This document shows, in pieces, positions 13,790 through 34,547 of a DNA stretch of 64,000 nucleotides (its first letter is position 1; the number at the start of each line of letters is the position of its first letter). The DNA lies in NCBI GenBank assembly GCA_963707915.1, contig OY970178.1, forward strand, positions 480,001-544,000, written 5' to 3'. Under the pieces are notes generated by a model that saw only the letters and a program-made list of their open reading frames with translations, was not told the origin of the DNA and did not search any database. Origin of the DNA: Candidatus Eiseniibacteriota bacterium (GTDB taxonomy: Bacteria > Eisenbacteria > RBG-16-71-46). The translations under genes and the position numbers were made by a program.

Positions 13790-15322
13790 ATGTCCAAGCT
13801 CGTCGAATGCGTCCCGAACTTCTCGGAAGGCCGCCGCCGCGAGGTGGTGGAGGAGATCATGCAGGCCATCGCTTCCGTCCCCGGCGTCACGCTGCTCGAC
13901 AGCGAGATGGACGCGGACCACAACCGCTCGGTGCTCACCTTCGCGGGCGAGCCGGAGCCGGTGATGGAGGCGGCGTTCCGCGCGGTGAAGCGCGGCAGCG
14001 AACGGATCGACCTGAACCAGCACCGTGGCGAGCACCCGCGCATGGGCGCGGCCGACGTGGTGCCGTTCGTGCCGGTCGAGGGGCTGACGCTCGAGGACTG
14101 CGCGGAGCTGGCGCGCCAGACCGGCCGGCGCATCGGCGAGGAGCTGGGGATCCCGGTGTTCCTCTACGAGGCGGCCGCCTCCCGCCCGGACCGGGTGATC
14201 CTCGCCGACGTGCGGCGCGGCGAGTTCGAGGGGCTGCGCGAGCTGATCGGGAAGGACCCGAAGAAGAAGCCCGACTTCGGTCCCGAGCGCATCCACGCGA
14301 CTGCGGGGGCGACCGCGGTGGGGGCCCGGCGCTTCCTCGTGGCCTTCAATGCGAACCTGAACACGCCGGACCTGCGGGTGGCGAAGGCCATCGCCGCCTC
14401 GATCCGCGAGCAGAGCGGCGGCCTCAAGAACGTGCGGGCGCTCGGCTTCTCGATCGAGGGCGGGCGGCGGGCCCAGGTGAGCATGAACCTGGTGAACACC
14501 GAGGCCACTCCCATCCACCGGGTGCTCGCCCTGGTGCGCGCCGAGGCGGCGCGGCACGGCGCGGCCGTCCAGGGCTGCGAAGTCGTGGGGCTGGTCCCCG
14601 AGTACGCGATGCTCGACGCCGCCGAGCACTACCTGCAGCTCGAGAACTTCCGCCGTGACCAGGTGCTGGAGTTGCGCCTCAAGACGCCGCCGCTCACCGA
14701 GGCGGTCTCGGTGGCGTCGTTCTTCGACTCGGTCGCCTCGCCGACCCCGACGCCCGGGGGCGGCACGGTCGCGGCCTTCGTCGGGGCGCTGGCCGCGACC
14801 CTGCCGACCATGGTGGCCGGCCTGACGCTGGGCAAGAAGAAGTACGCCGCGCACGAGGAGGCGATGAAGGAGGTGCGCCGCAACGCGGCGACGCTGCGCG
14901 GGCGGCTGCTGGGGCTGGCGCGCCGGGACAGCGAGGCCTTCGAGGCGGTGCTGCGGGCGCGGAAGCTGCCGCAGGCCAGCCCCGCCGAGGCCGAGGCGCG
15001 GGAGAAGGCCATGGCGGCCGCGGACTTGGCGGCGATGCGCGTGCCGCTCGAGACCGCGCAGGCGTGCCTCGAGGTGCTCGAGCTGGCCGCCGAGGTCGCG
15101 GAGAAGGGCAACATCAATGCCGCGAGCGACTCCGGGGTGGCCGGGCTGCTGGCGAACGCCGCGTCGGAAGGGGCGCTGCTGAACGTGGAAATCAACCTGA
15201 AGTCCGCCGGGCCATCCGCCGATAAGACCGACATCGAGATGAGCCTGCAACGCATCCGGACAGCGCTCGGCCCAATGGCGCGGCGCTGCCAGGATGCCGT
15301 GCATGCCGCCTTGAACGCTTGA
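13790..15322 (+). CDS. ftcd: Bifunctional glutamate formimidoyltransferase / formiminotetrahydrofolate cyclodeaminase
   Basis: LVECVPNFSEGR, DADHNRSV, HRGEHPRMGAADVVPF; C-terminal cyclodeaminase PTPGGG, GNINAASD, LNVEINL. GGAG RBS before ATG 13790. Confidence 0.93.
   Translation: MSKLVECVPNFSEGRRREVVEEIMQAIASVPGVTLLDSEMDADHNRSVLTFAGEPEPVMEAAFRAVKRGSERIDLNQHRGEHPRMGAADVVPFVPVEGLTLEDCAELARQTGRRIGEELGIPVFLYEAAASRPDRVILADVRRGEFEGLRELIGKDPKKKPDFGPERIHATAGATAVGARRFLVAFNANLNTPDLRVAKAIAASIREQSGGLKNVRALGFSIEGGRRAQVSMNLVNTEATPIHRVLALVRAEAARHGAAVQGCEVVGLVPEYAMLDAAEHYLQLENFRRDQVLELRLKTPPLTEAVSVASFFDSVASPTPTPGGGTVAAFVGALAATLPTMVAGLTLGKKKYAAHEEAMKEVRRNAATLRGRLLGLARRDSEAFEAVLRARKLPQASPAEAEAREKAMAAADLAAMRVPLETAQACLEVLELAAEVAEKGNINAASDSGVAGLLANAASEGALLNVEINLKSAGPSADKTDIEMSLQRIRTALGPMARRCQDAVHAALNA
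15198..15225 (+). promoter_or_regulatory. Sigma-28 (FliA/WhiG)-type promoter inside the ftcd 3' end, upstream of the TPR gene
   Basis: TGAAG-N15-GCCGATAA; same spacing as the sites at 21198 and 32735. Confidence 0.65.
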
Positions 15323-15397
15323 CAGGGACTGCGTCATGGCGGGAGGGCCGCCGCATCCGGGTCCGGCGCGGTGGCGTGCTCCGCGGAGAGAGCCAGC

Positions 15398-17296
15398 TTG
15401 GAAAAGGCGATTGACATCAAGCGACGGGCCCAGCGCTGTCTCCAGAGCGGTGATCTGGACGGCGCCCTGAGCGAGTACGACAAGCTCACCCGCGCAGAAG
15501 ACTCCGAGCCCATCAACCTGGTCGTCATGGCGGACCTCCTCTACAAGAAGGAGGACCTGGCCGAGGCGTCACGGCGCTACCTGCAGGCGGTTGAAGCCTA
15601 CAAGGGGGCGGGGCTCTACAAGAACGCCATCGCGGTCTGCAAGAAGATGGCGCGGCTGTCGCTCTCGCTCGCCGCGGTGCTCCAGCATCTCGCCGAGCTC
15701 CACGCGCTGGACGGCCTGAGCACCGAGGCGGCGCTCTATTACCAGGAGTACGCCGAACACCTGGCCCACGAGCAGAACTTCCGCGGCGCCGCCGCCAGCC
15801 TGCGCAAGGCCTTCGACGCCTCGCCCGAGAACCCGCGGCTGCTGGAGAAGGCGGCCGACTGGCAGCAGCAGGCGGGGGATGTGACCGGGGCGGCGGCATC
15901 GCTGATGGAGGCGTCCCGGCAGTACGCCCGCCGGGCGCAGACCGAGGACGCCACCCGGGCGCGGACGCGGGCGGATGAGCTGGCGCCCGGCGCCGGCACG
16001 GCGCGCCCGGCCCCGGTGAGCGCGGAGACGGCCTCGGCCGCGCCCGCGGCGGCGGATCCCGTGGTGGTCGAGCCCGTGGTGGTCGAGCCCCGCGCTGCCG
16101 AGGCCGGCGCCCCGGCACCGGAGCCGGCTCCGGCCCCGGCCGCGAGTGCCCCCGAGCCGGCCGCGCCCGATGCCGGGGACGCGCCCGCCGGGGAGATCGT
16201 CGACGGCCTCGAGCACCAGCGGACGTTCGTCTCCCCGCTGCGCGGCGAGCCGCAGCCCGAGGCGGAGGCCTCGGAGGCGACGCCTCCGTCGCCCCCCGAA
16301 CGGCACTTCGGCTCACCGCAGGAGTCGGCGGCCGATCCCGGGGACGACTCGACCCCCGCGACCAGCGCGATCTCCGCGATGCCGGAGATGTCGGAGATCG
16401 AGGACCTGCTGAGCCTGGCGGCCGAGCGGTTCAAGCAGGGGGAGCAGGACCTGGCAGCCGACGCGCTGGTGGAGGCGGCACGGGCCTACGAGGCGCTCGA
16501 GCGCCTGGAGAGCGCGGCCGCGATCTACCGCAGCCTGGGACGCAGCACGCATTGCACGCCCGAAGTCCTGGCCCTCTGGCTCCGGAACTGCGAGCTGCGC
16601 GAAGAGCCCCGCGAAGCGGCGGAGGTCGCCTGCGGGCTCGGCGACCGTGCCCTGAACGACGGCGACCTGGACGGCGCGCGCGCCTGGTTCGAGCGTGCCC
16701 TGAAGCACGTCCCGCACCACGAACTGGCGACCCGCCGGATGCAGCGGATGGGGCCGGGCGCGCCGGTGGCTGCGCCGGTCGAGGAGCAGGGCGCGCCGGG
16801 AGGGGCGAAGGGCCCGAACGGCCGGGTCGAGGTCACCCTGGGCCGCGCGCAGGCCGTCACGCTCGACCTCGGTTCGCTGATCGCGGAGTTCCGCACCGGC
16901 ATCGAGTCGCAGATTTCGGGCGACGCCCAGAGCCACTATGATCTCGGCATGACCTACCGGGAGATGGGACTGTTCGACCAGGCCGTCGAGTGTTTCCGCA
17001 CCGCGGCGCGCGACCCCAGGTTCGCCTCGCGCGCGGCCGAGATGGTCGGCCGCTGCCTGCTGGACGAAGGGCGATTCGACGAGGCGGTCGAGGAGTTCAC
17101 GCGCGCGCTGAAGGGCCTCGAGGACGCGTCCGAGGCGGGTATCTGCCTGCGCTTCCAGCTCGGTCTGGCCCACGAAGTCGCCGGCCACGCGCCCGACGCG
17201 CTGGCCGAGTTCGAGCGCGTCTACGCCGTCCAGCCGAACTACCCGGATGTGGCCCAGAAGATCGGGGTGCTCCGCAGGGCCCTGGAGCGGGTGTGA
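15398..17296 (+). CDS. TPR protein, SgmX-like architecture (N-terminal TPRs, Pro/Ala linker, C-terminal TPRs)
   Basis: TTG start after GGAGAG. NAIAVCKKMARL and DAQSHYDLGMTYREMGLFDQAVECF TPR motifs. Confidence 0.75.
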   Translation: MEKAIDIKRRAQRCLQSGDLDGALSEYDKLTRAEDSEPINLVVMADLLYKKEDLAEASRRYLQAVEAYKGAGLYKNAIAVCKKMARLSLSLAAVLQHLAELHALDGLSTEAALYYQEYAEHLAHEQNFRGAAASLRKAFDASPENPRLLEKAADWQQQAGDVTGAAASLMEASRQYARRAQTEDATRARTRADELAPGAGTARPAPVSAETASAAPAAADPVVVEPVVVEPRAAEAGAPAPEPAPAPAASAPEPAAPDAGDAPAGEIVDGLEHQRTFVSPLRGEPQPEAEASEATPPSPPERHFGSPQESAADPGDDSTPATSAISAMPEMSEIEDLLSLAAERFKQGEQDLAADALVEAARAYEALERLESAAAIYRSLGRSTHCTPEVLALWLRNCELREEPREAAEVACGLGDRALNDGDLDGARAWFERALKHVPHHELATRRMQRMGPGAPVAAPVEEQGAPGGAKGPNGRVEVTLGRAQAVTLDLGSLIAEFRTGIESQISGDAQSHYDLGMTYREMGLFDQAVECFRTAARDPRFASRAAEMVGRCLLDEGRFDEAVEEFTRALKGLEDASEAGICLRFQLGLAHEVAGHAPDALAEFERVYAVQPNYPDVAQKIGVLRRALERV

Positions 17297-18141
17297 TGCA
17301 TCGGCCGCCTGCCCCGGGAGGCGGTCGCCGGGTCGATCTCCACGTGCACACCCTCTTCAGCGACGGCGTGCTCACGCCCGAGGCGGTCGTGGCGCACGCC
17401 CTCGAGCGCTCGCTGGCCGCGCTCGCCATCACCGACCACGACTCGATCGAGGGCGTGGAGCGCGCGCGGATCGCGGCCGGGACGGCCCTCGAGCTGGTGC
17501 CGGGGATCGAGGTCTCCTCCACGCTGGACGGCGCCGACCTGCACATCCTCGGCTACTACCTCGACCCGGAGGATGCCGGATTGACGGACTCGCTGGCGCG
17601 CTTTCGCGACGAGCGGTTGCGCCGCGCCCAGTCGATGGTCGATCGCCTGCGCGCCCTGGGCGCCCCGGTGGACTTCGAGGAAGTGCTCGAGCTGGCGGGG
17701 CCGGGCGTGGTGGGGAGACCGCACGTGGCCGAAGCGCTGGTGCGCGCCGGGCACGTCGAGACGGTGGACGAGGCCTTCCGGCGATTCATCGGGGCGCACG
17801 GCGAGGCCTTCGTGCAGCGGCCGGCCTTCCATCCCGAGCACGCCATCGCCCTGATCCACGCGGCCGGCGGGGTGAGCGTGCTGGCCCATCCCGGTCCCTC
17901 GCTGCCCGACCTGGTGGTGGAGCAACTCGCCGACGCCGGGCTGCGTGGCATCGAGGTCTGGCATCCCCAGCACGGCGCAGCCGCGGTGCGACGCTTCCAC
18001 GCCCTGGCGCGGCGTCTCGGTCTGCTGGAGACCGGCGGTTCCGATTACCACGGCTGGCCGCGCGGCGCCGCGCTGGGCGAACTGCCGGTCCCCGCGAGCG
18101 TACTGGGCCCCCTCAAACAAGCCGCCGGCGTCCCCGGCTGA
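17296..18141 (+). CDS. PHP-domain metal-dependent phosphoesterase (YciV/TrpH-like)
   Basis: DLHVHTLFSDG, AITDHD, GIEVS, HILGY, GRPHVA, LAHP, TGGSDYHG. Confidence 0.9.
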   Translation: MHRPPAPGGGRRVDLHVHTLFSDGVLTPEAVVAHALERSLAALAITDHDSIEGVERARIAAGTALELVPGIEVSSTLDGADLHILGYYLDPEDAGLTDSLARFRDERLRRAQSMVDRLRALGAPVDFEEVLELAGPGVVGRPHVAEALVRAGHVETVDEAFRRFIGAHGEAFVQRPAFHPEHAIALIHAAGGVSVLAHPGPSLPDLVVEQLADAGLRGIEVWHPQHGAAAVRRFHALARRLGLLETGGSDYHGWPRGAALGELPVPASVLGPLKQAAGVPG

Positions 18142-18284
18142 TCCTCGCCGGAGCGAGCGCGGCGATCGGGCGGGGCCGGCCGGCGCGGGAGACGCTCCCG
18201 GCCGGCATGGCGAACGCGCGAGGCGGGGCGGAAGCGGGCGGCCGGCGGGCCGCGCCCGCCTCGAACGTCGCCACCCCGGTTCCG

Positions 18285-18314
18285 TTGACTTGCGCGCACC
18301 GGTGACCCTAATCT
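18285..18314 (+). promoter_or_regulatory. Sigma-70-type promoter of the ECF S-component gene
   Basis: TTGACT-N18-TAATCT, 12 nt before ATG 18327. Confidence 0.55.
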
Positions 18315-18326
18315 GCGCGGGCCCTC

Positions 18327-18899
18327 ATGGATGACCTCCCGCCCCCTGTGGAGCCCGCGATCGAGCGCCCGCCGCTCACGTCCCGCCGCCTTGCGTACAT
18401 GGCGCTGCTCGTCGCTGTCTGCCTCGCCGGGGCCTACGCGCCGCGCCCCCCCGACTTCGAGGTGCAGACCCTCGGGATCTTCGGCGCCGGCGTGCTGCTC
18501 GGCGCCCGCGACGGCGCCCTCGTCGGGGGGCTCACGATGCTGGTGTACTCGTTGCTGAACCCGTACGGTCCCGCCCATCCGCTGGTGACCGTGGCCCAGT
18601 TGCTCGGGCAGGTCCCGGCCGGCATCGTCGGCGGCGGCTTCGCGGCGCTCGGTCTGCACGGGCGCCCCGTGGCCGTGCGCGGCGTCGCGCTCGCCGCCGC
18701 GGCCCTCGCGCTCACCCTGTGGTTCGATCTCGTGACCAACGTGGCGACCGGCCTGGTCTTCGGCCAGATGCGGGTCGTCCTCCTGCAAGGGATCCCATTC
18801 GCGCTATGGCACACCGGCTCCAACCTGCTGCTCTTCGTGCTGCTCGGGACGCCGCTCGTCGCGGTGTTCGGGCGCTATCGGGCGCGGCTCTCCTCCTGA
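18327..18899 (+). CDS. ECF transporter S-component-like membrane protein
   Basis: 190 aa with about 6 hydrophobic segments. RRLAYMALLVAV and PDFEV...GAGVLLGARDGALVGG pattern. Confidence 0.7.
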   Translation: MDDLPPPVEPAIERPPLTSRRLAYMALLVAVCLAGAYAPRPPDFEVQTLGIFGAGVLLGARDGALVGGLTMLVYSLLNPYGPAHPLVTVAQLLGQVPAGIVGGGFAALGLHGRPVAVRGVALAAAALALTLWFDLVTNVATGLVFGQMRVVLLQGIPFALWHTGSNLLLFVLLGTPLVAVFGRYRARLSS

Positions 18900-20611: not shown

Positions 20612-20687
20612 CCCCGGCTCCCGCGAGCGGGCCGGGCCGCCGAAGGCCCCGCCCGTCGCGGGAACGGCGCGCCCCCGCGGAGACCGG

Positions 20688-21146
20688 ATGCCTGCCTGGA
20701 CGCCGGCGGAGCGGCGCGGCGCGCTGGTGGTCGCGTTGCTCCTCTCGCTGGGCGCGGCGCGTGATCTGTGGCGCGCGGCGCACCCGCGCATGACCCCCGC
20801 GCCGCCGGCCACGACGGAGGTCTCGAGCGGCGCTTCGGCGCCCGCCGCCGGCCCGCCGGCGGGAAGCGCCGGCCCGGAACCGGCCGGGGCCGGGGCGGTG
20901 GTCGACCTCAACCAGGCCGGGCTCGCCGAGCTGGACGCCCTGCCCGGCATCGGTCCGGTGCTGGCCGGACGCATCCTGCAGCACCGCAGCGCCCACGGCC
21001 CGTTCCGGGAACCGGAGGACCTGCTCGCGGTGCCCGGCATCGGGCCGCGCCTCTACGAGCGCCTCCGGCCCCGGATCCGCGTCGGCCCCGCCCGGGCGCC
21101 TGCGGCCGGGAGTCGAGCGAAGCCGGGCGGCCCGTCCGGGCCCTGA
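20688..21146 (+). CDS. comEA: ComEA-family helix-hairpin-helix DNA-binding protein
   Basis: N-terminal TM segment; VDLNQAGLAELDALPGIGPVLAGRI...GPF...EDLLAVPGIGP. Confidence 0.9.
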   Translation: MPAWTPAERRGALVVALLLSLGAARDLWRAAHPRMTPAPPATTEVSSGASAPAAGPPAGSAGPEPAGAGAVVDLNQAGLAELDALPGIGPVLAGRILQHRSAHGPFREPEDLLAVPGIGPRLYERLRPRIRVGPARAPAAGSRAKPGGPSGP

Positions 21147-21197
21147 GGGCCTTGCAATCGGCATCCCCGGCGCGGCTTTCCGCCTGCGGATTCTGGT

Positions 21198-21225
21198 TCA
21201 GGAGTCCGGGGAGGCCGGCCGATAA
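21198..21225 (+). promoter_or_regulatory. Sigma-28-type promoter of the pilB operon
   Basis: TCAGG-N15-GCCGATAA in intergenic DNA. Confidence 0.7.
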
Positions 21226-21248
21226 CCCAGGTGAAACACGACGCCCAA

Positions 21249-21370
21249 GTGCATCGTGCGCGGCCGTTTGCTCCCTGGAGTCCGGCCGCGCGGATGCACG
21301 TGGCTTTCGTTCGCAGGCTCAGCGCCGCGCGACTCCAGTCTCCGCTGCCGCGGAGCGCGTGTCGCGTGGC
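21249..21370 (+). ncRNA. Candidate structured 5' leader (hairpin plus pseudoknot) of pilB
   Basis: Stem 21249-55/21293-99 and 21258-66/21283-91. Loop CTGGAGTC (21275-82) is complementary to GACTCCAG (21331-38). Folded by hand only. Confidence 0.45.
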
Positions 21371-21395
21371 AGGACCACCGCCGGGGACGAGATTC

Positions 21396-23090
21396 GTGCA
21401 GGAAGACATCGGACAGCTGCTCCTGGCAGCCCAATTGATCGACGAGGACGGGCTCGGCAAGGCCTCGCTCCAGCAGAAGAACATGGGCGGGAGCCTGACC
21501 GGGAACCTGGTCAAGATCGGTGCGATCAGCGAGGACGCGCTCCTGGAGTTCCTCGCGTCGCACTACGGGACGCCCCAGTTCGACCTGAAGAACTTCACGC
21601 CCGACCCGGCGCTCACGCGCCTGATCCCGGGCGACGTCGCCAGCCGCTTCATGGCCCTGCCGGTCGCCCGCAGCGGGCGGCGGCTGGTGGTCGCCATGGC
21701 GAACCCGACCAACATCTTCGCCATCGACGACATCAAGTTCATCACCGGCTACGAGGTCGAGCCGCGGGTCGCGACGGAGGCCGCGCTCAAGAAGGCCCTG
21801 GACCGCGCCTACGACTCGGCCAGCACGATGGCCGACGTGATGAAGGGCATCGAGGACGACCTCTCGGTCGTCGAGGACGACGACAGCGCCGAGGCCGAGG
21901 CGGGGCTCTCGGCGGCCGACGAGGCGCCGATCGTGAAGCTGGTGAACTCGCTCATCGCCGACGCGGTGCGCAAGGGCGCCTCCGACATCCACGTCGAGCC
22001 CTACGAGCGGAGCATGCGGGTGCGCTTCCGCATCGACGGCGTGATGCAGGAGATGATGGCGCCGCCGTTCAAGTTCAAGGCCGCCATCCTCTCGCGACTG
22101 AAGATCATGGCGGAGCTGGACATCGCCGAGCGGCGCGTGCCGCAGGACGGGCGCATCAAGATCAAGGTGATGAACCGCACCATCGACCTGCGCGTCTCGT
22201 CGCTGCCGACCATCTTCGGCGAGAAGATCGTGATGCGCATCCTCGACAAGGCGAACCTCAACATCGACCTGGAGAGGCTCGGCTTCGAGCCGGCCTCGAT
22301 GAAGGAGTTCATCTCGGCGATCGCCAACCCGTACGGCATGGTGCTGGTCACCGGGCCCACCGGCTCCGGCAAGACCACCACGCTCTACTCGGCGCTCTCG
22401 CGGGTGAACACCCCCGAGGTCAACGTGATGACCGCCGAGGACCCGGTCGAGTACAACCTCGACGGCATCAACCAGGTGCTGGTGCACGAGGACATCGGCC
22501 TCACCTTCGCCGCGGCGCTCAAGGCGTTCCTGCGGCAGGACCCCAACATCATCATGGTGGGCGAGATCCGCGACCTGGACACCGGCTCGATCGCGGTGAA
22601 GGCGGCGCTCACCGGCCACCTGGTGCTCTCCACGCTGCACACCAACGACGCGCCGAGCGCGATCGGCCGCATGATCGACATGGGGGTCGAGCCGTTCCTG
22701 GTGGCGTCGTCGGTGAACCTGATCCTGGCCCAGCGCCTCGTGCGCAAGGTGTGCAACGGCTGCAAGGCGCCGATCACGCTCAGCCAGGAGGTGCTGCACG
22801 AACTGCAGCTCACCCCCGAGCAGGCTGCCGGCGCGACGTTCGTCGAGGGACGCGGCTGCGTGGACTGCAACAACACCGGCTACCGCGGGCGGCAGGGCGT
22901 CTACGAGGTGATGTCGATGACGCCGGCGATCCGCGAGCTCGTGCTGGAGCGGGCATCGGCCAACGAGATCAAGCGCGTGGCCATCTCGCAGGGCATGCTG
23001 ACCCTGCGCCGCGACGCGCTGGAGAAGCTCAAGCGCGGCATGACCACGGTCGAGGAAGTGCTCAAGGAGACGGCGGCCGACCAGTTCTAG
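21396..23090 (+). CDS. pilB: Type IV pilus extension ATPase
   Basis: ASDIHVEP, LDIAERRVPQDGR, GPTGSGKTTT, AEDPVEY, LRQDPNIIMVGEIRD, Zn-binding CxxC pairs. GTG 21396 chosen as start. Confidence 0.95.
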   Translation: MQEDIGQLLLAAQLIDEDGLGKASLQQKNMGGSLTGNLVKIGAISEDALLEFLASHYGTPQFDLKNFTPDPALTRLIPGDVASRFMALPVARSGRRLVVAMANPTNIFAIDDIKFITGYEVEPRVATEAALKKALDRAYDSASTMADVMKGIEDDLSVVEDDDSAEAEAGLSAADEAPIVKLVNSLIADAVRKGASDIHVEPYERSMRVRFRIDGVMQEMMAPPFKFKAAILSRLKIMAELDIAERRVPQDGRIKIKVMNRTIDLRVSSLPTIFGEKIVMRILDKANLNIDLERLGFEPASMKEFISAIANPYGMVLVTGPTGSGKTTTLYSALSRVNTPEVNVMTAEDPVEYNLDGINQVLVHEDIGLTFAAALKAFLRQDPNIIMVGEIRDLDTGSIAVKAALTGHLVLSTLHTNDAPSAIGRMIDMGVEPFLVASSVNLILAQRLVRKVCNGCKAPITLSQEVLHELQLTPEQAAGATFVEGRGCVDCNNTGYRGRQGVYEVMSMTPAIRELVLERASANEIKRVAISQGMLTLRRDALEKLKRGMTTVEEVLKETAADQF

Positions 23091-23160
23091 GAACGCACCG
23101 GCGCGGGTCCCGCAACCGGCGGGGGCCCTCACCGTCGAATCGGAGAGGAGAGGACCAGAC

Positions 23161-24264
23161 GTGGTGACCCTTCGCCAGCTGCTCGAGGACATGGTGTCGA
23201 GGCGGGCCTCGGACCTGCACATCACGGCCGGAGTGCCGCCGGAGTTCCGCGTGGACGGGATCATCGCGCCGAGCGAGTACGAGGTGCTCAGCCCCGACGA
23301 CACCGGCAAGCTCGCGTACAGCGTGATGTCGGACGAACAGCGCAAGCGCTTCGAGACCACCAAGGAGCTGGACTTCTCGTTCGGCATCAAGGGCCTGGCG
23401 CGCTACCGCGCGAACGTCTTCCTGCAGCGTGGCACGGTCTGCATGGTGATCCGCCAGATCCCCTTCGAGATCCTGCAGATGGACAAGCTGGGGCTGCCGA
23501 ACGTGGCCCGGGAGTTCACCAACCGGATGAAGGGGATGATCCTGGTGACCGGGCCGACCGGCAGCGGCAAGTCGACGACGCTGGCGGCGATGCTGGACAA
23601 GATCAACCAGACGCGCCAGTGCCACATCATCACCATCGAGGACCCGGTCGAGTACATCCATCACCACAAGAAGTGCATCGTGAACCAGCGGGAGGTCGGC
23701 TCGGACACGACGTCCTTCCCGACCGCGCTCAAGTACGTCCTGCGCCAGGACCCGGACATCATCCTGATCGGCGAGATGCGCGACCTCGAGACCATCGAGG
23801 CGGCGCTCACCATCGCCGAGACCGGGCACCTGGTGTTCGCCACCCTGCACACCAACTCGACCTACGAGGCGGTCAACCGCATCGTGGACGTGTTCCCCGC
23901 CGACCAGCAGAAGCAGATCCTCACCCAGCTCGCCTTCACGCTCGAAGGCGTGATCACCCAGCAGCTCATCCCGCGCAGCCACGGCTCGGGGCGCATCCTG
24001 TGCGCCGAGGTGCTGGTGTGCACGCCGGCCATCAAGGCGGTGATCCGCGAGGGCAAGACGCACCAGATCTACAGCCTGATGCAGGCCGGGCAGAAGTTCG
24101 GCATGCAGACCATGAACCAGGCGCTCCTGCAGGCGGTGCTCGACAAGCACCTGAGTCCCGAGGACGCGTTCGAACACTGCAGCGACCGGACCGAGCTCGA
24201 GGGGATGCTCGGGAAGGTCTGGGCCGGTTCGGCGGGCGGTTCGACCCACCGGAAAGTCGCGTAG
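23161..24264 (+). CDS. pilT: Type IV pilus retraction ATPase
   Basis: ASDLHIT, GPTGSGKSTTLAAM, TIEDPVEY, NQREVG, AETGHLVFATLHTN, AIKAVIRE, GMQTM. Confidence 0.95.
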   Translation: MVTLRQLLEDMVSRRASDLHITAGVPPEFRVDGIIAPSEYEVLSPDDTGKLAYSVMSDEQRKRFETTKELDFSFGIKGLARYRANVFLQRGTVCMVIRQIPFEILQMDKLGLPNVAREFTNRMKGMILVTGPTGSGKSTTLAAMLDKINQTRQCHIITIEDPVEYIHHHKKCIVNQREVGSDTTSFPTALKYVLRQDPDIILIGEMRDLETIEAALTIAETGHLVFATLHTNSTYEAVNRIVDVFPADQQKQILTQLAFTLEGVITQQLIPRSHGSGRILCAEVLVCTPAIKAVIREGKTHQIYSLMQAGQKFGMQTMNQALLQAVLDKHLSPEDAFEHCSDRTELEGMLGKVWAGSAGGSTHRKVA

Positions 24265-24273
24265 GAGGATCCC

Positions 24274-25491
24274 ATGCCTGTCTTCGTTTGGAAGGGACGC
24301 ACGCTCGCCGGTGAGGCGCAGAGCGGGGAGATCGAGGTCGGGCGCCAGGACGAGGCCGTCGACCTGCTGCGCAAGAGGAAGATCCTGGTCACCTCGATGC
24401 GGCCCAAGTCCGGCGGCTTCAAGATGCCGAAGCTGGGCGGCAGCGGCGTGACGACCAAGGACCTCGCCATCTTCACCCGTCAGTTCGCGACCATGATCTC
24501 GGCCGGCCTGCCGCTGGTCCAGTGCCTCGACATCCTCGCCAAGCAGTCGTCGAAGCCCTCGTTCGGCCGGGTGATCGGCGAGGTCACGCGCGAGGTCGAG
24601 GCCGGCGCGACGCTCGCGGACGCGCTGGGCAAGCACAAGGACGTCTTCGACGACCTGTTCCGCAACATGGTGGCCGCGGGCGAGGCCGGCGGCGTGCTGG
24701 ACGAGATCCTCATGCGGCTCGCCACCTACATCGAGAAGGCGGACGCCCTGAAGCGCAAGGTCCAGGGCGCGATGGTCTACCCGGCGGTGGTGCTCTCGGT
24801 CTGCGTCGGCGCCGCGGCCTTCATGCTGATCTTCATCATCCCGACGTTCGCGAAGATGTTCACGGACTTCGGCGGGGAGCTGCCGCTGCCCACCAAGATC
24901 GTCCTGATGCTGTCGAACGGGCTGCAGCGGTACTGGTGGGTGATGGTGCTGGGGATCGTCGGCGGGGTGATCGCGTTCAAGCGCTACCACGCCACCGAGT
25001 CCGGCCACCGGAACATCGACGCGACCATGCTGAAGGTGCCGGTGCTGGGCGACGTGCTGCTGAAGGGCGCGGTGGCCCGCTTCACGCGCACGCTCGGCAC
25101 GCTGATCGCGTCGGGCGTGCCCATCCTGGCGGGCCTCGAGATCACGGCCCGCACCTCGGGCAACCGGATCATCTCCGAGGCCATCATGACGGCCCGCTCG
25201 TCGATCAGCGAGGGCGAGACGGTGTCGGCCCCGCTCAAGGCGTCGGGCGTGTTCCCGCCGATGGTGGTGCAGATGATCTCGGTGGGCGAGCAGACCGGCG
25301 CGCTCGACGAGATGCTCACCAAGATCGCGGTGTTCTACGAGTCGGAGGTGGACACCGCGGTGGACAGCATGACCTCGATCATCGAGCCGCTGATGATCGT
25401 GATGATGGGCGGCATGGTCGGCGGCATGGTGGTCGCGATGTACCTGCCGATGTTCAAGCTGATCAGCGTGGTCGCCGGCGGGTCGAACTGA
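24274..25491 (+). CDS. pilC: Type IV pilus inner-membrane platform protein
   Basis: FTRQFATMISAGLPL, GEAGGVLD, AMVYP, LPLPT, GEQTGALDEML, AMYLPMF. Confidence 0.95.
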   Translation: MPVFVWKGRTLAGEAQSGEIEVGRQDEAVDLLRKRKILVTSMRPKSGGFKMPKLGGSGVTTKDLAIFTRQFATMISAGLPLVQCLDILAKQSSKPSFGRVIGEVTREVEAGATLADALGKHKDVFDDLFRNMVAAGEAGGVLDEILMRLATYIEKADALKRKVQGAMVYPAVVLSVCVGAAAFMLIFIIPTFAKMFTDFGGELPLPTKIVLMLSNGLQRYWWVMVLGIVGGVIAFKRYHATESGHRNIDATMLKVPVLGDVLLKGAVARFTRTLGTLIASGVPILAGLEITARTSGNRIISEAIMTARSSISEGETVSAPLKASGVFPPMVVQMISVGEQTGALDEMLTKIAVFYESEVDTAVDSMTSIIEPLMIVMMGGMVGGMVVAMYLPMFKLISVVAGGSN

Positions 25492-25493
25492 CG

Positions 25494-27197
25494 ATGACGA
25501 CGCTCGCGCACGAGCCGGCCGGTCCGGGCAGCCCGCCCGCCCTGCCGCATCCCGCGCCCGGCCCCGGTGGCCGGGAGCGGGCGCCCGTGCGTGGGCTGAT
25601 GACGCTGGTGTGGGGCCGGCTGGTGGTCGCGGCGCTGGCGTTGCCGTTGGGCCTGCTGATGCGCCCCGACGCCGACGGGGGGGCGCGCGCCCTGTTCGCC
25701 GCGTCGGCCGCGTGGGTCGTGGCGCTCTCGGCGGTGTTCGCGCTCGCGCTTCGCACCCGGCGCTCGCTCGCGCTCCAGGGCCACGCGCAGCTGGTCGCGG
25801 ACCTCCTCCTGGTGACGGCGCTGGCGGCGCACACCGGCGGGCGGGGCAGCCCGTTCGTGCTGTTCTACGTGCTGGTGGTCATCTCGGGCGGGCTGCTGGC
25901 CCGGCTCGGCGGCGGGCTGTTCGCCGCCGCGGGCGCGGGCGGCGCCTACCTGCTCCTCCCGGCGCTCGCGGCGCGCGTCGACCCCTCCGGGGCCGCGGCC
26001 CCGGAGACCGCGCTCCCGGCCGGGATGCTGCTGGCCTTCGTCGCCATCGTGGGGGTGCTGGCCGGTGTGCTGGGGCGCCGGGTGCGCGCCACGCGCGACG
26101 ACCTGGAGCGCACCACGCGCGAGCTCGACCGGGTGCGCGTGGATAACGACGTCATCCTGCGGCACCTGGCGACCGGCGTCCTCACGGTGGATGCCTGGGG
26201 GACGGTGGCCTACCTGAACCCGGCCGCCGAGCAGGTGCTGGGACTGCGGACGCCGGAGCTGCGCGGGCGCGCGCTGCGGGAGGCGCTGCCCGATCGCATC
26301 GGGCTGCTGCGCGACCTGGTGCAGGACACGCTGGCCCGCGGCGAGCCCCGGATGCGTGCCGAGATGACCGCGCGCTCGGCCGCCGGTCACGAGCTGGTGC
26401 TGGGGGTGACCACCAACCTGTTGCGCCACGAAGGCGCGGTGACCGGGGTCGTGGCGGTCTTCCAGGACCTGACCGCGGTGCGCGCCATGGAGCAGCGCGC
26501 GCGCCGCAACCAGACGCTGGCCGAGGTGGGCGCGCTGGCCGCGGGGATCGCGCACGAGTTGCGCAACGGGCTCAACCCGATCAGCGGCTCGGTGGAGTTC
26601 CTGCAGCGCGAGCTCAAGCCCGAGGGGGAGAGTGCCGTGCTCATGAACCTCATCACGCGGGAGTGCGGGCGGCTCAACCGGTTCGTGTGCGACCTGTTGA
26701 GCTACGCGCGCGAGCGCGACCTGGTGCTGGAGCCGTTCGACCTCGACGACCACATGGACGAGCTGCGCGACGGGCTGCGGAGCGATCCGCGTTGCGGCGC
26801 CGGGGTCCGGGTCGCCTTCGAGCCGCCGGGCACCGGCGTGCGCCTGCGGGGCGACCGCGGGCAGTTGCGGCAGGTCTGGCTGAACCTGGTCAACAACGCG
26901 CTGGACGCGATGGCCGGCGTCGGCACGCTGACGGTGCGCTGGCGTCCGGCGGATGGCGGGCGGGTGGTCGTGGAGTTCCAGGACCAGGGGGCCGGCATCG
27001 CCCCCGAGGTCCTGCCGCGCGTCGGAGAGCCCTTCTTCACCACCAAGCAGGAAGGCACCGGGCTGGGCGTGGCGATGGCCCAGCGGATCCTGGAGCGGCA
27101 CGGCGGCTCGCTGGTCTTCGAGAGCGCGCCGGGCCGCGGCACGATCGTCCGGGTGAGCCTGCCTGCCGAAGTCGAAATCCTGGCGAAAGCCGCTTGA
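25494..27197 (+). CDS. pilS: Membrane PAS sensor histidine kinase, PilS-like
   Basis: Multiple TM segments, PAS domain, H-box AHELRNGL, N-box NLVNNA, DQGAGI, FFTTK, GTGLG; position before pilR. Confidence 0.85.
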   Translation: MTTLAHEPAGPGSPPALPHPAPGPGGRERAPVRGLMTLVWGRLVVAALALPLGLLMRPDADGGARALFAASAAWVVALSAVFALALRTRRSLALQGHAQLVADLLLVTALAAHTGGRGSPFVLFYVLVVISGGLLARLGGGLFAAAGAGGAYLLLPALAARVDPSGAAAPETALPAGMLLAFVAIVGVLAGVLGRRVRATRDDLERTTRELDRVRVDNDVILRHLATGVLTVDAWGTVAYLNPAAEQVLGLRTPELRGRALREALPDRIGLLRDLVQDTLARGEPRMRAEMTARSAAGHELVLGVTTNLLRHEGAVTGVVAVFQDLTAVRAMEQRARRNQTLAEVGALAAGIAHELRNGLNPISGSVEFLQRELKPEGESAVLMNLITRECGRLNRFVCDLLSYARERDLVLEPFDLDDHMDELRDGLRSDPRCGAGVRVAFEPPGTGVRLRGDRGQLRQVWLNLVNNALDAMAGVGTLTVRWRPADGGRVVVEFQDQGAGIAPEVLPRVGEPFFTTKQEGTGLGVAMAQRILERHGGSLVFESAPGRGTIVRVSLPAEVEILAKAA

Positions 27198-27231
27198 GAG
27201 CCACGAACGCCCTTCTGGAGAGGTGATCCAC

Positions 27232-28644
<1,413 letters not shown>

Positions 28645-28676
28645 GGATTGCAGCGTGCACGGAATGGCCGCCTGCA

Positions 28677-28719
28677 TTGCGAATCGCGCAACCGGTGGCC
28701 GGTCGCAAGGAGGATTGCG
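28677..28719. promoter_or_regulatory. Candidate enhancer (UAS) for PilR
   Basis: Palindromes TTGCG-N5-CGCAA (28677-91) and CGCAA-N6-TTGCG (28704-19), 100-140 bp upstream of the sigma-54 site. Confidence 0.45.
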
Positions 28720-28818
28720 CGGTCCCGGCCCGGCCCGGGGGACGCGCAGGACGGACCCGAAGCAGTCAACTCGAAGTGCGGGAACGCAGTAGGGAAGCAG
28801 CACGGGGAAGGCCGCGCG

Positions 28819-28834
28819 TGGCACGGCGGTTGCT
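28819..28834 (+). promoter_or_regulatory. Sigma-54 (-24/-12) promoter of pilin 1
   Basis: TGGCACGGCGGTTGCT is a perfect TGGCACG-N4-TTGC match. Confidence 0.85.
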
Positions 28835-28907
28835 CGACTAGCAGGTCGAGGGTCCAGGAAACGACGCGAAGGGCGACCCGAGGAATCCACCAGGAGGAGT
28901 GCCAGCC

Positions 28908-29340
28908 ATGTTCCGTTCCCAGAAGGGCTTCACCCTGATCGAGCTGATGATCGTCGTCGTCATCATCGGCATCCTCGCTGCCATCGCGATCCCGAACTTC
29001 ATCGCCATGCAGAACCGCGCGAAGGAAGGCAGCACCAAGGCCAACATGCACACCTTCCAGCTCGCGGCCGAGGACTACGGCGTGCAGAACGACGGCGTCT
29101 ACGCCGCGGACGCCGCCACCGTCGCGCCCCTGCTGCCGGCCGGCGGCGCCACCTTCAAGAACCCGTTCGACGGCGACACGGGCACTGCGTACGACGACAT
29201 CGGCAGCTTCGTCCGGCCGCTGGTTCCCGACCGCGACGGCCGGCATCGTCTCGTACAGCGACTCGTCGACGGCGCTGTACATCATCGCGGGTCAGGGCAA
29301 GGACGCGGCCCTCACGCTGCAGCTCACCGCTGGCCAGTAG
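28908..29340 (+). pseudogene. pilA: Major type IVa pilin with an apparent frameshift near 29229 (real or assembly error)
   Basis: KG/FTLIELMIVV prepilin motif and AGGAGG RBS. After RPLVP, homology to pilin 2 continues in another frame (TATAGIVSYSDSSTALYIIAGQGKDAALTLQLTAGQ*, TAG at 29338-40), followed by a hairpin. Confidence 0.8.
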
Positions 29341-29644
29341 CAGCCGACGGTAGACGGGGCGGGAGGCGCGCGACGCCTCCCGCCCATTCGATGACGCGAG
29401 AGCCGGGAGACGGACTTCGAAACGGCGGCCGTGGAGCGCCGCCAGGAAGGTGAGTCGGGCCATGCGAGAATCGCCCAGAGGGTTCACCCTGATCGAGTTG
29501 ATGATCGTGGTCGTCATCATCGGAATCCTGGCGGCCATCGCGATCCCCAACTTCGTCGCGATGCAGGTCCGCGCCAAGGAAGGCAGCACCAAGGCCAACA
29601 TGCACACCTTCCAGCTGGCGGCCGAGGACTACGGCGTGCAGAAC
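29022..29644 (+). repeat. 69-nt direct repeat shared by the two pilins (29022-29090 and 29576-29644)
   Basis: AAGGAAGGCAGCACC...GTGCAGAAC, 68 of 69 nt identical by manual comparison. Confidence 0.85.
29357..29385 (+). terminator. Stem-loop after pilin 1
   Basis: GGGCGGGAGGCG-cgcga-CGCCTCCCGCCC, a 12-bp perfect stem with a weak U tail. Confidence 0.65.
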
Positions 29645-29893
29645 AACGGGCGGTACGCGGGGACCGCGGACGAGGTCGCACCCGGGTTGGCCGGCGGCGG
29701 CTCCACGCTCAAGAACCCGTTCGACGGCAGCACGACCACCGCCTACGCGGACCAGCCTGCGTGGGCACGGCCGCTGGCGACCGGCGTGACGACGCCCGGC
29801 ACCGCGGTGTACGGGGACTCCTCGAACGTGGTCTACCAGATCGCGGGCGAGGGCAAGGACGCCACCCTGAGGCTGGTGCTCACCAGCAACTGA
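29462..29893 (+). CDS. Second type IVa pilin, tandem paralog
   Basis: RG/FTLIELMIVVVIIGILAAIAIPNF; alternative start GTG 29450. Confidence 0.9.
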   Translation: MRESPRGFTLIELMIVVVIIGILAAIAIPNFVAMQVRAKEGSTKANMHTFQLAAEDYGVQNNGRYAGTADEVAPGLAGGGSTLKNPFDGSTTTAYADQPAWARPLATGVTTPGTAVYGDSSNVVYQIAGEGKDATLRLVLTSN

Positions 29894-30037
29894 CGGAGCC
29901 CGGGGCCGCTCTGCCCGGCCCGTCGCTACGCGCGGCAGACCCCCGAGGTTCTCCTGCCCAGGAGAGCTTCGTGGCGTCCGGATGAGCCCGGTCACCCGCC
30001 CCGCCTTCCCCTGGCGCCCCGCCTCCTCACCTCCGTG

Positions 30038-30053
30038 CGGCACGCCCGTTGCA
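30038..30053 (+). promoter_or_regulatory. Sigma-54 promoter of the ABC module
   Basis: CGGCACGCCCGTTGCA, matching GG-N10-GC with CACG and TTGC. Confidence 0.75.
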
Positions 30054-30155
30054 AGCACAGGCGCCCCGGTGGAGCCGCCATGCGACAGGGCCGGCCATGG
30101 CCCGATGGCGCAAGGGCTTGGCCCCATCGGAGGGGACCCGGAGGTGGACGAAACC

Positions 30156-31175
30156 ATGCAGAGTTCGATCGCCTCGATTGCGGACCGGCAAGCGACTGGC
30201 CGCCCTCTGGCCGCGGCGACTGCCCCGGATCCCGGCCTGGCCGTGTGCGTCCGGGGGCTTGCGAAGCACTACGTGCACCCGTGGACGCTCCGGGTGACGC
30301 GCGGTCTCGACGCGCTGGACCTCGACGTGCGCCGCGGCGAGGTGATGGGCCTGCTCGGTCCCAACGGGGCCGGGAAGACCACCACGCTCAAGCTCCTCAC
30401 CGGGCTGCTGAAGCCCACGCGCGGGCAGGCCTGGCTGATGGGCGAGCCGGTCGAGGACACCGCCTCGCGCCGCAGCCTCGGCTTCCTGCCCGAGCAGCCG
30501 TACTTCTACGACTACCTGAACGGCATCGAGTACCTCGAGCTGGCGGCACGGCTCTCCGGCATGACGGCGGCGGCGGCGCGCGACCGCGCGCGCCACTGGC
30601 TCGGACGGGTCGGGCTCGACGAGCGACCGCGCCTTGGCCTGCGCAAGTACTCGAAGGGCATGCTGCAGCGCCTCGGGCTGGCGGCCGCGCTGGTGCACGG
30701 GCCCGGGTTGCTCATCCTGGACGAGCCCATGAGCGGGCTCGACCCGTTCGGCCGCCGCGACGTGCGCGACCTCATCACCGAGCAGCGCGAGCGCGGCGTG
30801 ACCGTGCTGTTCTCTTCGCACATCCTGCCGGACGTCGAGATGCTGTGCGACCGGGTGGCCATCATGACCGGCGGCCGCCTGACGCGAGTGGCCACCGTCG
30901 GCGAACTGGTGGAGGACGGGCCGCAGGCGGTCGAGATCCGCTGTGCGGCGGGGGCGCTGCTCGAGGTGCCGTCCCGCTGGGCGGGCCAGGTCTCGCGCAC
31001 CCAGCGTGCCGACGAGTCCGTCTTCCGGGTCGAGGACGAGGCGCGGCTGGGGGACGTGCTGGGCTGGCTGCTCCAGTCCGGCGTCCCGATCCGCGCGGTG
31101 ACGCCGCAGCGACCGACCCTCGAATCGCTCTTCCTGGCCGCCGCCGAGACCGAGCACGAGCGGAGGAGCGCATGA
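30156..31175 (+). CDS. ABC ATP-binding protein (Myxococcus PilH-like)
   Basis: GPNGAGKTT, YSKGMLQR, LDEP, SSH; GGAGG RBS before ATG 30156. Confidence 0.9.
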   Translation: MQSSIASIADRQATGRPLAAATAPDPGLAVCVRGLAKHYVHPWTLRVTRGLDALDLDVRRGEVMGLLGPNGAGKTTTLKLLTGLLKPTRGQAWLMGEPVEDTASRRSLGFLPEQPYFYDYLNGIEYLELAARLSGMTAAAARDRARHWLGRVGLDERPRLGLRKYSKGMLQRLGLAAALVHGPGLLILDEPMSGLDPFGRRDVRDLITEQRERGVTVLFSSHILPDVEMLCDRVAIMTGGRLTRVATVGELVEDGPQAVEIRCAAGALLEVPSRWAGQVSRTQRADESVFRVEDEARLGDVLGWLLQSGVPIRAVTPQRPTLESLFLAAAETEHERRSA

Positions 31176-31936
31176 TCCCGCTGCTCATCGCGCGCAACAC
31201 CTTCCGCGAGGCGACGCGCGACCGCGTGCTGGCCGGGGTGGTGGTGGCCGGCCTGGCGCTGCTCGCCCTGACGCAGGCGGCGAGCTCGCTGGCGATGGGC
31301 GAAGGGCGGCGTTTCACCGTGGACCTCGGACTGACGGGCATCTCGGTGCTCGGGCTGCTCGTCATCCTGCTCACCGGCACGAGCCTGGTGGCCAAGGAGG
31401 TCGAGCGGCGCACCATCTACAACCTGCTCTCGCGCCCGATCACGCGGCCGGCGTACCTGGTGGGCAAGTGGATCGGGTTCTCGGCGACGCTCTGGAGCGT
31501 CGCGTTGGTGCTGGGCGTGGCCCTGTGGGGGCTCGTCCTGTTCCGCGGCTGGGGCGGGAACGGCCTGGCGGTGCTGGAGGGGGTCTACCTCGCCGGGCTC
31601 GAGCTCAGCGTGATCACCGCGCTGGCGGTGATGTTCTCGGCGCTCTCGACGCCGGTGCTCTCGGCGCTCTACACGCTGGGCTTCTACGTGGTGGGGCAGT
31701 GGAGCTACGACCTGCGCATGCTCGCCGAGAAGCTCCCCCGCGAGCTCGGCGGGCTGCTGTCGGTGGTCGCCAACCTGGTCCCCAACCTGCCGCTCTTCAA
31801 CATGCGCACGCTGGCGGCCGAGGGCACCCCGACGACCTGGCTGCACCTCGGGCTGGCCTCCGGCTACGCCGCGGTCTACGTGGCCTGCGTGCTGTGCCTC
31901 GCCACCGCGGCCTTCGAGTCGAAGGACTTCAAGTGA
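31172..31936 (+). CDS. ABC-2 permease (PilI-like)
   Basis: IARNTFREATRDR, KEVERRTIYNLLSRPITR..Y..GK, about 6 TM segments, FESKDFK end. Confidence 0.85.
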   Translation: MIPLLIARNTFREATRDRVLAGVVVAGLALLALTQAASSLAMGEGRRFTVDLGLTGISVLGLLVILLTGTSLVAKEVERRTIYNLLSRPITRPAYLVGKWIGFSATLWSVALVLGVALWGLVLFRGWGGNGLAVLEGVYLAGLELSVITALAVMFSALSTPVLSALYTLGFYVVGQWSYDLRMLAEKLPRELGGLLSVVANLVPNLPLFNMRTLAAEGTPTTWLHLGLASGYAAVYVACVLCLATAAFESKDFK

Positions 31937-32694
31937 GCGCGCCGGCCGCGGTGGGCCCGCGCGGCCGCCGCTTCCTCGCCGCGTGGACGGCGGCCGTCGT
32001 GCTGGGCGCCGCGGCGTTCACGCTGGCGGGCGCCGCCTGGCGGGTGCTGCCGCATCCGCAACCGCTGGAGGAACTGTCGTACTACCCCTCGGGGCGCTAC
32101 CTCGAACCCGCGACGCTCGGTCACGCCGCGACCGCGGCCGACCTCGCGTGGCTGCGGGCGGTGCAGTACTACGGCCAGCACCGTGCCACCGACAACCAGT
32201 TCGTGAGGATGGGGCACGTGTTCGACATCCTCACCACGCTCGACCCCCGGTTCGAGCCGGCCTACTCGTTCGGCGCCTTCGCCCTGGCCCAGGAGGGCCG
32301 GGACTTCCCGGCGGCCGAGCGCCTCATGCGGAAGGGCCTCGCGGCCAACCCGGCGAGCGGGGAACTGGCGTTCGAGATGGGCTTCCTCTACTACGTGCGC
32401 CCCGGCGCGCGGGACTTGGAACGTGCCGCCGACTTCTTCGAGCAGGCCGCGCGCCTGCCGGACGGCCCTCCCCAGTCGGCCCGCTTCGCGGCCTTCGCCC
32501 GGCAGAACTCCGGCGATCTCGCGGCGGCCTACGAGCTCTGGTCCCACGTCGAACGCACCTCACCCAACCGCTACCTGCGCGAAATCGCCCAGCGGGAGAT
32601 GGCCCGGATCGTCGAGGCGCTGCAGCGCGGCCGCCGGGAGCACGCCATGGATCGCCTCGCCACGCCGGTCGTGCTGCTCCGGGAGCGGTCGTGA
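31933..32694 (+). CDS. Membrane-anchored TPR-like accessory protein (PilG-like)
   Basis: N-terminal TM segment; ADLAWLRAVQYYG and TTLDPRF..AY motif; TPR-like helices. Confidence 0.7.
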   Translation: MSAPAAVGPRGRRFLAAWTAAVVLGAAAFTLAGAAWRVLPHPQPLEELSYYPSGRYLEPATLGHAATAADLAWLRAVQYYGQHRATDNQFVRMGHVFDILTTLDPRFEPAYSFGAFALAQEGRDFPAAERLMRKGLAANPASGELAFEMGFLYYVRPGARDLERAADFFEQAARLPDGPPQSARFAAFARQNSGDLAAAYELWSHVERTSPNRYLREIAQREMARIVEALQRGRREHAMDRLATPVVLLRERS

Positions 32695-32734
32695 GGGCGC
32701 GCCCGGGGGCCCCGCCGGGGGGGGCAATGTCCGC

Positions 32735-32762
32735 TCAAGTCCAATCCGCGTACCGCCGATAA
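32735..32762 (+). promoter_or_regulatory. Sigma-28-type promoter of pilMNOPQ
   Basis: TCAAG-N15-GCCGATAA in intergenic DNA. Confidence 0.75.
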
Positions 32763-32915
32763 GCACCATGACAGGTCACCCGACTGGGTCCCCGGATCCA
32801 GGGGTGGCCCGGAGTTCGGCCCGTTGTCGTTCGTTCCGCCGCGAGTGGCCAGAGAGCCCCGCGGTCCAGCCCGCCGTGCCGGGTCAGGCCCGCACCGCGT
32901 CCAGGGAGTGAAGAC

Positions 32916-34537: not shown

Positions 34538-34547
34538 GGAGAACGCC

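Follow-up and report, generated by a model that had tools for sequence, protein, structure and literature searches.

Putative sigma-28-type promoters in front of type IV pilus genes in a genome of the uncultured Eisenbacteria

The window analysed here, a stretch of 64,000 nucleotides (nt) from Candidatus Eiseniibacteriota bacterium (contig OY970178.1, positions 480,001 to 544,000), is part of a single 3.62-Mb contig with 72% G+C and carries the genes of a type IV pilus (pil). Upstream of pilB, of pilM and of the gene for a TPR-repeat protein about 4 kb before pilB stand three sites of one kind, which are likely to be promoters read by an RNA polymerase with a sigma-28 (FliA/WhiG-family) factor. 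The genes, sites and neighbouring features are as follows, in window coordinates:

13790-15322, + strand: FTCD (formiminotransferase-cyclodeaminase) gene, with site 1 inside its 3' end
15197-15225, + strand: TPR site (site 1), predicted sigma-28-type promoter; -35 CTGAAGTC at 15197-15204, -10 GCCGATAA at 15218-15225
15371-17296, + strand: gene for the TPR-repeat protein, 641 amino acids, Pfam TPR families
21198-21225, + strand: pilB site, predicted sigma-28-type promoter; weak -35 TCAGG at 21198-21202, -10 GCCGATAA at 21218-21225
21396-23090, + strand: pilB, Pfam T2SSE and MshEN; start most likely GTG 21396
23161-24264, + strand: pilT, by Pfam
24274-25491, + strand: pilC, by Pfam
25494-27197, + strand: pilS, by Pfam
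27223-28644, + strand: pilR, by Pfam; receiver, Sigma54_activat and Fis-type helix-turn-helix domains
28819-28833, + strand: sigma-54 promoter TGGCACGGCGGTTGC of the GG-N10-GC type, 66 nt before the first pilin gene
28899-29453 and 29450-29893, + strand: two pilin genes, Pfam N_methyl (N-terminal methylation motif)
32735-32762, + strand: pilM site, predicted sigma-28-type promoter; -35 TCAAG(TCC) at 32735-32742, -10 GCCGATAA at 32755-32762
32916-37267, + strand: operon pilM-pilN-pilO-(gene in pilP position)-pilQ, Pfam PilM_2, PilN, PilO and Secretin

The identities of pilB, pilS, pilR, the pilins, pilM and their neighbours, first proposed from the letters and translations in an earlier note on this DNA, are borne out by Pfam, which also places an ABC ATPase gene among those of the pil region; the gene in the pilP position (35173-35928) matches no Pfam family. 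The start of pilM is ATG 32916, and that of the TPR protein is most likely GTG 15371, as homology to relatives begins at residues 2-9.

Within the window GCCGATAA is found three times, at 15218, 21218 and 32755, always on the + strand, against a mean of 0.31 copies in the shuffled window (0 of 100 shuffles reach three); the genome as a whole holds 27 copies, both strands counted. The composite T[CG]A[AG]G-N15-GCCGATAA occurs only at 15198, 21198 and 32735 (3 against 0.01 expected), and exact search of the window therefore agrees with the earlier note, which had reported these three copies as the only ones noticed. Its distances from site to gene start hold for pilB (170 nt) and pilM (153 nt), whereas the 172 nt given for the TPR gene was wrong: with the start placed at GTG 15371, the site ends 145 nt before it. 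All three -35 elements lie at N15 and read TCAAG before pilM, TGAAG before the TPR gene and only TCAGG before pilB, the lineage form of the TAAA(G)-type element being TCAAG.

Genome-wide, TCAAG-N15-GCCGATA[AC] occurs 11 times against 0.058 expected per spacing; there are four copies at N14 and none or one at each of 14 other spacings (8 to 23). A two-block position weight matrix (PWM) was trained on this same genome, with seven wrong spacings and the reversed matrix as controls. It returns 15 hits scoring at least 24 (wrong spacings 0-1, reversed 0), 47 scoring at least 20 (3-11 and 2) and 109 scoring at least 16 (34-72 and 24), the excess over the controls thus being small at low scores. The pilM site scores 26.9 (genome rank 6) and the TPR site 24.9 (rank 13); the pilB site reaches 17.0, low because its -35 is TCAGG. 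Read from these sequences, the consensus of the lineage is (C)TCAAG(TC)-N14/15-GCCGATA(A/C).

A Pfam scan was made of the 40 genes downstream of sites scoring at least 20 outside the window. Genes behind the motif type include motA, a flgL-like flagellin-family gene, cheW-CZB and csrA, together with signalling genes (two HDOD, one HD-GYP/GAF and seven sensor kinases, of which six are of hybrid type, having a receiver domain), two HEAT-repeat genes, two DUF6982 genes and a second TPR protein. Others look unrelated (a TonB-dependent receptor, LptC, rho, a cold-shock protein and others), and 10 are without family. The flagellin gene is preceded by TCAAG-N14-ACCGAAAC. Exact GCCGATAA also stands before a pair of TadE-like pilus genes and before an MglA homologue (E 1.8e-72 to solved MglA structures); the gene in the MglB position beside the latter matched no solved structure. 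The motif is accordingly rare, sharply dependent on spacing and placed on flagellar and chemotaxis genes, not frequent at random, and it defines a predicted regulon with the content expected for sigma-28, widened to surface motility and signalling.

Orthologous loci were compared among 41 genomes, the present one included, from six families of one class; these kin are not independent, and the counts measure maintenance over divergence, not probability. The site rule was TCAAG (at most one mismatch), N14-15 and nCCGAnnn, at most 300 nt upstream on the sense strand. By this rule the pilM site is present at 26 of 30 loci in two families, including 21 of 24 genomes without detected FlhA, as against 0/30 on the antisense strand and 6/30 for four wrong spacings pooled. 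The four loci outside the rule still carry a TCAAG or TTCAG block followed by CGAT, TCGAT or TCGAAA, and orthologous pilM sites vary between N14 and N15. The TPR site is found at 20 of 23 loci and in 15 of 18 FlhA-less genomes (antisense 1/23; four wrong spacings pooled 1/23), with its -10 GCCGATAAG kept at all 23; seven more TPR loci were left out, their N-terminus or upstream DNA lying off the contig. For pilB the strict count is only 9 of 29 loci, because the -35 there is TTCAG or TACAG; CCGATA nevertheless lies 125-200 nt upstream of the gene at all 20 loci of the present genome's own family (antisense 0/20), one pilB locus having been left out for lack of upstream DNA. Conservation upstream of orthologues, which the earlier note had named as a check, is thus found for the pilM and TPR sites, and for the pilB site within its own family only. 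By the contig coordinates of the matches, the TPR gene and pilB lie a few kb apart on one contig in relatives from two families. In the TPR orthologues of family f3 (e.g. L080, L082, L089, L090 and L094) each match is interrupted in frame by a single TAG, TGA or TAA stop; either the gene is split or broken there, or the match spans two adjacent genes.

Cognate sigma genes are present as well. Two genes of the FliA/WhiG family, P1 and P2, exceed the TIGR02479 and NF005413 cut-offs over their full length, with TIGR02479 scores of 243 and 221 bits (cut-off 189.6); both stay below the equivalog models for WhiG, SigD and chlamydial sigma-28, and they share 40% identity. In genome coordinates they lie as follows:

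1179922-1180806: P1, behind a MinD/FlhG-like ATPase gene and before a GGDEF gene
1687953-1688624: P2, in a flagellar cluster, after flhA, flhF and an flhG-type ATPase gene and before a flagellar rod gene

The P1 operon (flhG-like/sigma/GGDEF, at about 1.18 Mb) is situated about 636 kb beyond the end of the window and is preceded by genes for a histidine kinase, an NtrC-type regulator and a CheY-like receiver. A strict sigma-54 pattern has no match within 10 kb on either side of P1, and a look-up of P1 in the Atlas gave generic sigma-28 clusters only. About 6 kb from P1, csrA (1186132-1186463) stands 55 nt behind a site scoring 24.3, and the MglA homologue with its GCCGATAA site lies 2 kb beyond csrA. 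On paper the genome is not aflagellate: flagellin-family genes and flhA are present, and late flagellar genes bear the motif type. The FHIPEP match of flhA (1690443-1692397) falls into three pieces in different frames (profile 1-301, 321-386 and 381-655), so that either the gene is frameshifted or the assembly has indel errors there. The FlgM model of Pfam had no match in a six-frame search; a 112-amino-acid protein (1713609-1714070) behind an N14 site at the edge of the flagellar region looks FlgM-like by eye, and it was set aside as no FlgM model matched it.

Across the relatives, P1 orthologues (51-92% identity) are present in 38 of the 41 genomes, FlhA in nine (8 of the 26 that are at least 90% complete) and P2-like matches (36-40% identity to P1) in seven only. 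Six of these seven are exactly the FlhA-positive genomes of the present genome's own family; the seventh is 54% complete. Five FlhA-less genomes (92-100% complete) contain 6-16 copies each of TCAAG-N14/15-GCCGATA, 48 in total and 41 of them at N15, as against 0-3 each and 3 in total for the reversed pattern. Since flagellum-less relatives keep both the sigma factor and its sites, the factor appears to have been re-used in them to switch on pili. Of the two paralogues P1 is more likely to read the pilus promoters, because it is P1 and not P2 that co-occurs with the sites across the relatives, most of which are without FlhA and P2 and yet keep P1 together with the pilM and TPR sites.

The genes from pilB to pilR are separated by gaps of 2-70 nt, and no terminator-like site was found on the + strand between 21226 and 28644; the short gaps and this absence suggest that pilB-pilT-pilC-pilS-pilR (21396-28644) is probably a single transcription unit. 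Beyond it lies the second tier proposed in the earlier note, for which all parts are at hand: the sigma-54 promoter TGGCACGGCGGTTGC, the Sigma54_activat domain of PilR and an rpoN gene (444 bits). The note had called the resulting cascade the reverse of the flagellar order; the components of its sigma-54 tier are present, while the ordering itself is a way of framing them and not a finding. Six metatranscriptome runs contain 5-7% of the sampled words. Four of these runs were aligned; all consist of assembled contigs, mostly 90-95% alike and so derived from relatives, from which neither starts nor strand nor level can be read. The contigs match pilB-pilC, pilR, the pilins and pilM-pilN, some crossing the predicted start regions and others beginning after them, and were used neither for nor against the promoter reading.

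The motif with its spacing, enrichment and conservation, the sigma genes and the sigma-54 promoter together point to a tiered flow of control that is probably correct as a whole. Active sigma-28 would initiate transcription at the three sites and so transcribe the TPR gene, pilB-T-C-S-R and pilMNOPQ; PilS and PilR from the second of these units would then activate the sigma-54 promoter of the pilins. In that order of events the structural filament gene would be expressed only after the genes for motor, platform and sensor. The claim of the earlier note that a sigma-28 factor drives the pilus machine is in this way supported by the rarity and spacing of the motif, by cognate sigma genes and by conservation in orthologues.

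Several further features lie close to the predicted promoters. A G+C-rich stem-loop opens the predicted pilM leader about 10-20 nt after the -10 (window 32763-32915; loci L009-L038); its sequence varies between genera and its pairing potential is kept (e.g. GGCCG...CGGCC, or GAGGACGCGG...CCGCGCCTC), and it could act as a 5'-terminal stabilising hairpin. In front of pilB a terminator-like hairpin with a T-run at 21171-21188 ends 10 nt before the -35 and would insulate pilB from the upstream genes. TGCA-rich blocks of the TGCAATCGGCA and GTGCAGATTCCGG types are kept just upstream of the pilB -35 in relatives (window 21100-21200; loci L039-L058), and similar blocks precede the sigma-54 promoter of the pilins (window 28650-28760); they may be candidate binding sites of PilR or another regulator. 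Within pilO there is one more PWM match, CTTCAAGCC-N15-GACCGAGACCT (34897-34924, score 21.2), some 250 nt upstream of the gene in the pilP position; it could mark an internal promoter or have arisen by chance.

That the three copies are functionless chance matches has next to no probability: beyond the shortness of the motif nothing speaks for it, and the shuffled windows, the sharp dependence on spacing and the conservation in orthologues across two families all speak against it. Site 1 calls for more care, as it is not intergenic but lies entirely inside the FTCD reading frame, within the last codons of the gene (...GAA ATC AAC CTG AAG TCC ... GCC GAT AAG...). It might be conserved only for the residues of FTCD (I-N-L-K-S ... 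A-D-K), with the TPR gene read through from FTCD, and a contig from the RNA library of one relative does span the end of FTCD and the start of the TPR gene, although such a contig cannot show a single transcript. However, GCC GAT AAG is kept at 23 of 23 loci even though GAT makes up only 10% of the Asp codons in the genome, and GAA (11% of Glu codons) or CAA precedes in most, and the codons that separate the two boxes are freely variable while the boxes are not. FTCD orthologues were also taken from four genomes without a TPR match; one alignment ended before the site, and in the other three (G025, G027 and G038) both boxes are absent at the aligned place, with Asp-Lys encoded as GAC AAG in G025. 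Since the rare GAT is invariant and the boxes are missing from FTCD genes without the TPR gene, the pattern argues for selection on the DNA of site 1 itself, with which additional read-through from FTCD would be compatible. Conservation for the protein alone is therefore quite unlikely.

Doubt about the pilB site takes another form. On this view promoter function would be limited to the pilM site and possibly the TPR site, the pilB site being the conserved binding site of another regulator that contains CCGATAA, and pilB having another promoter. Its -35 (TCAGG or TTCAG, 3/5 matches to TCAAG), its PWM score and the TGCA-rich blocks, which flank it in relatives and are similar to the ones before the pilin promoter, fit this proposal, as does the sister family f3, which is without the site and has a sigma-54-like element upstream of pilB at several loci. 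Nonetheless, CCGATA keeps the same relative place at every own-family pilB locus and is never found there on the antisense strand, and in most of these loci a T-rich TTCAG stands at the fixed distance of 15. Regulated promoters, moreover, commonly pair an off-consensus -35 with an upstream activator site, and the proposal is on the whole unlikely. A different question is which paralogue reads the pilus promoters. If it were P2, pili and flagella would be co-induced as one motility regulon and P1 would have other targets: P2 is a full FliA-family protein adjoining flhA, flhF and flhG, the late flagellar genes share the -35 TCAAG and a related -10, and FliA-like sigma factors serve both appendages in Actinoplanes zoospores (PMC8325347). 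Yet P2-like genes are confined to those seven genomes, and FlhA-less genomes keep the pilM and TPR sites at the frequencies given above. The sites also differ in form, the five that belong to or adjoin the flagellar cluster, and the cheW-CZB site away from it, having N14 and an ACCGA-type -10 and the three pilus sites N15 with GCCGATAA. This difference hints faintly that spacing insulates the two regulons, the hint being weak because both N14 and N15 occur among orthologous pilM sites. Control of the pili by P2 is accordingly rather improbable, and P1 is retained as the likelier reader. A bolder form of this view would make P1 a sigma factor devoted to surface motility, which survived the loss of the flagellum throughout the class and commands the type IVa pilus, its TPR partner, MglA and the Tad genes; in genomes that also have a flagellar cluster with P2, the P1 and P2 regulons would be kept apart by N15-GCCGATAA versus N14-ACCGA(T/A)AC; it is offered as a tentative idea that is doubtful at present.

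A number of points weigh against sigma-28 control as proposed. The PWM hit counts are partly circular, the matrix having been trained on the same genome, and the pilB site scores in the range where real hits only modestly outnumber the wrong-spacing controls. The predicted leaders are long, at about 140-165 nt, and the assembled RNA contigs of relatives tie none of the sites to a 5' end. The position of site 1 in coding sequence means that its conservation is partly protein constraint. CCGATA stands before pilB at none of the 8 loci of family f3 and is missing from the single f2 locus as well, and several f3 loci (e.g. L060-L062) have a sigma-54-like element, GGCACG-N5-TTGC, instead, which suggests that the promoter type before pilB was swapped between families. 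As to the sigma factors, the three f2 genomes each have a single P1-like sigma gene and it adjoins flhA. No sigma-28 gene over the cut-off was found in 3 of the 41 genomes, G001 (96% complete), G007 (87%) and G037 (53%, with a fragment at a contig end), and G001 and G007 still keep the pilM site.

Sigma-28 control of type IV pili is, by published precedent in Rubrobacter and Actinoplanes (PMC8325347), not new in principle. A literature search limited to article listings found no study of pilMNOPQ under a FliA-type factor in Gram-negative bacteria and none on the motility genes of Eisenbacteria. The present host appears to be diderm from its matches to PilQ secretin, LptC, a TonB-dependent receptor and Omp85, so that what is known from Gram-positive Actinomycetota, a sigma-28 factor rewired to pili, would extend to a diderm uncultured lineage with PilMNOPQ; the rewiring there could have arisen independently or be ancient. 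Many relatives retain a 'flagellar' sigma factor without a detected export gene, and this factor would thereby be given a job, namely type IV pili with polarity and signalling genes, and sigma-28, PilSR and sigma-54 would be linked in a testable three-tier hierarchy. Site 1 would serve as a clean example of a promoter maintained within coding sequence through synonymous-site constraint, and the motif should be usable for predicting motility regulons in metagenome-assembled genomes of this group.

Among the closest known systems is WhiG of Rubrobacter radiotolerans, for which 5'-end capture confirmed 12 promoters (-35 TAAA, -10 GCCGATAA); nine pil genes, in three units, are transcribed from the three of these promoters that are situated within the pilus cluster, and genes of cyclic di-GMP turnover are also targets (Schumacher et al. 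2021, PMC8325347). The likeness extends to three sites in the pil region and to HDOD, HD-GYP and GGDEF-linked genes in the motif set. In contrast to Rubrobacter, the present host appears diderm, the -35 is TCAAG and not TAAA, and the pilin is handed to PilSR and sigma-54; the Rubrobacter promoters, further, have captured 5' ends, the sites described here being predicted ones. Zoospores of Actinoplanes missouriensis employ FliA-like sigma factors for both flagella and pili (PMC8325347), and a 2026 preprint distinguishes two clades of actinobacterial WhiG homologues (the WhiG1/WhiG2 split), one tied to the flagellar cluster and one independent of it, with pilus targets predicted in several families (PMC12871210). 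As in those Actinomycetota, sigma-28 paralogues occur in one genome, one tied to a flagellar cluster and one independent, both appendages stand under sigma-28-type promoters, and the WhiG1 -35 CTCA resembles the (C)TCAAG found here (PMC12871210, PMC8325347). The present case differs from them in phylum and in that P1 is kept by lineages without detected FlhA.

For classical FliA/SigD promoters of class III flagellar genes the consensus is TAAA-N15-GCCGATAA (as quoted in PMC8325347). The -10 is identical here, the spacing is equal or one base longer, and motA, the flgL-like gene, flagellin and cheW bear the motif; unlike in the classical case, the window's targets belong to the type IVa pilus, the -35 is TCAAG and FlgM has no family match. 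The lower tier resembles the control of pilin genes by PilS/PilR and sigma-54, of the Pseudomonas or Myxococcus type. Myxococcus PilR is also mentioned in the Rubrobacter study (PMC8325347). Here too pilS and pilR lie near the pilin gene, PilR has a sigma-54 activation domain and the pilin promoter is of the GG-N10-GC type, but pilSR are situated behind pilBTC and downstream of a sigma-28-type site, which would add a further tier above the familiar one.

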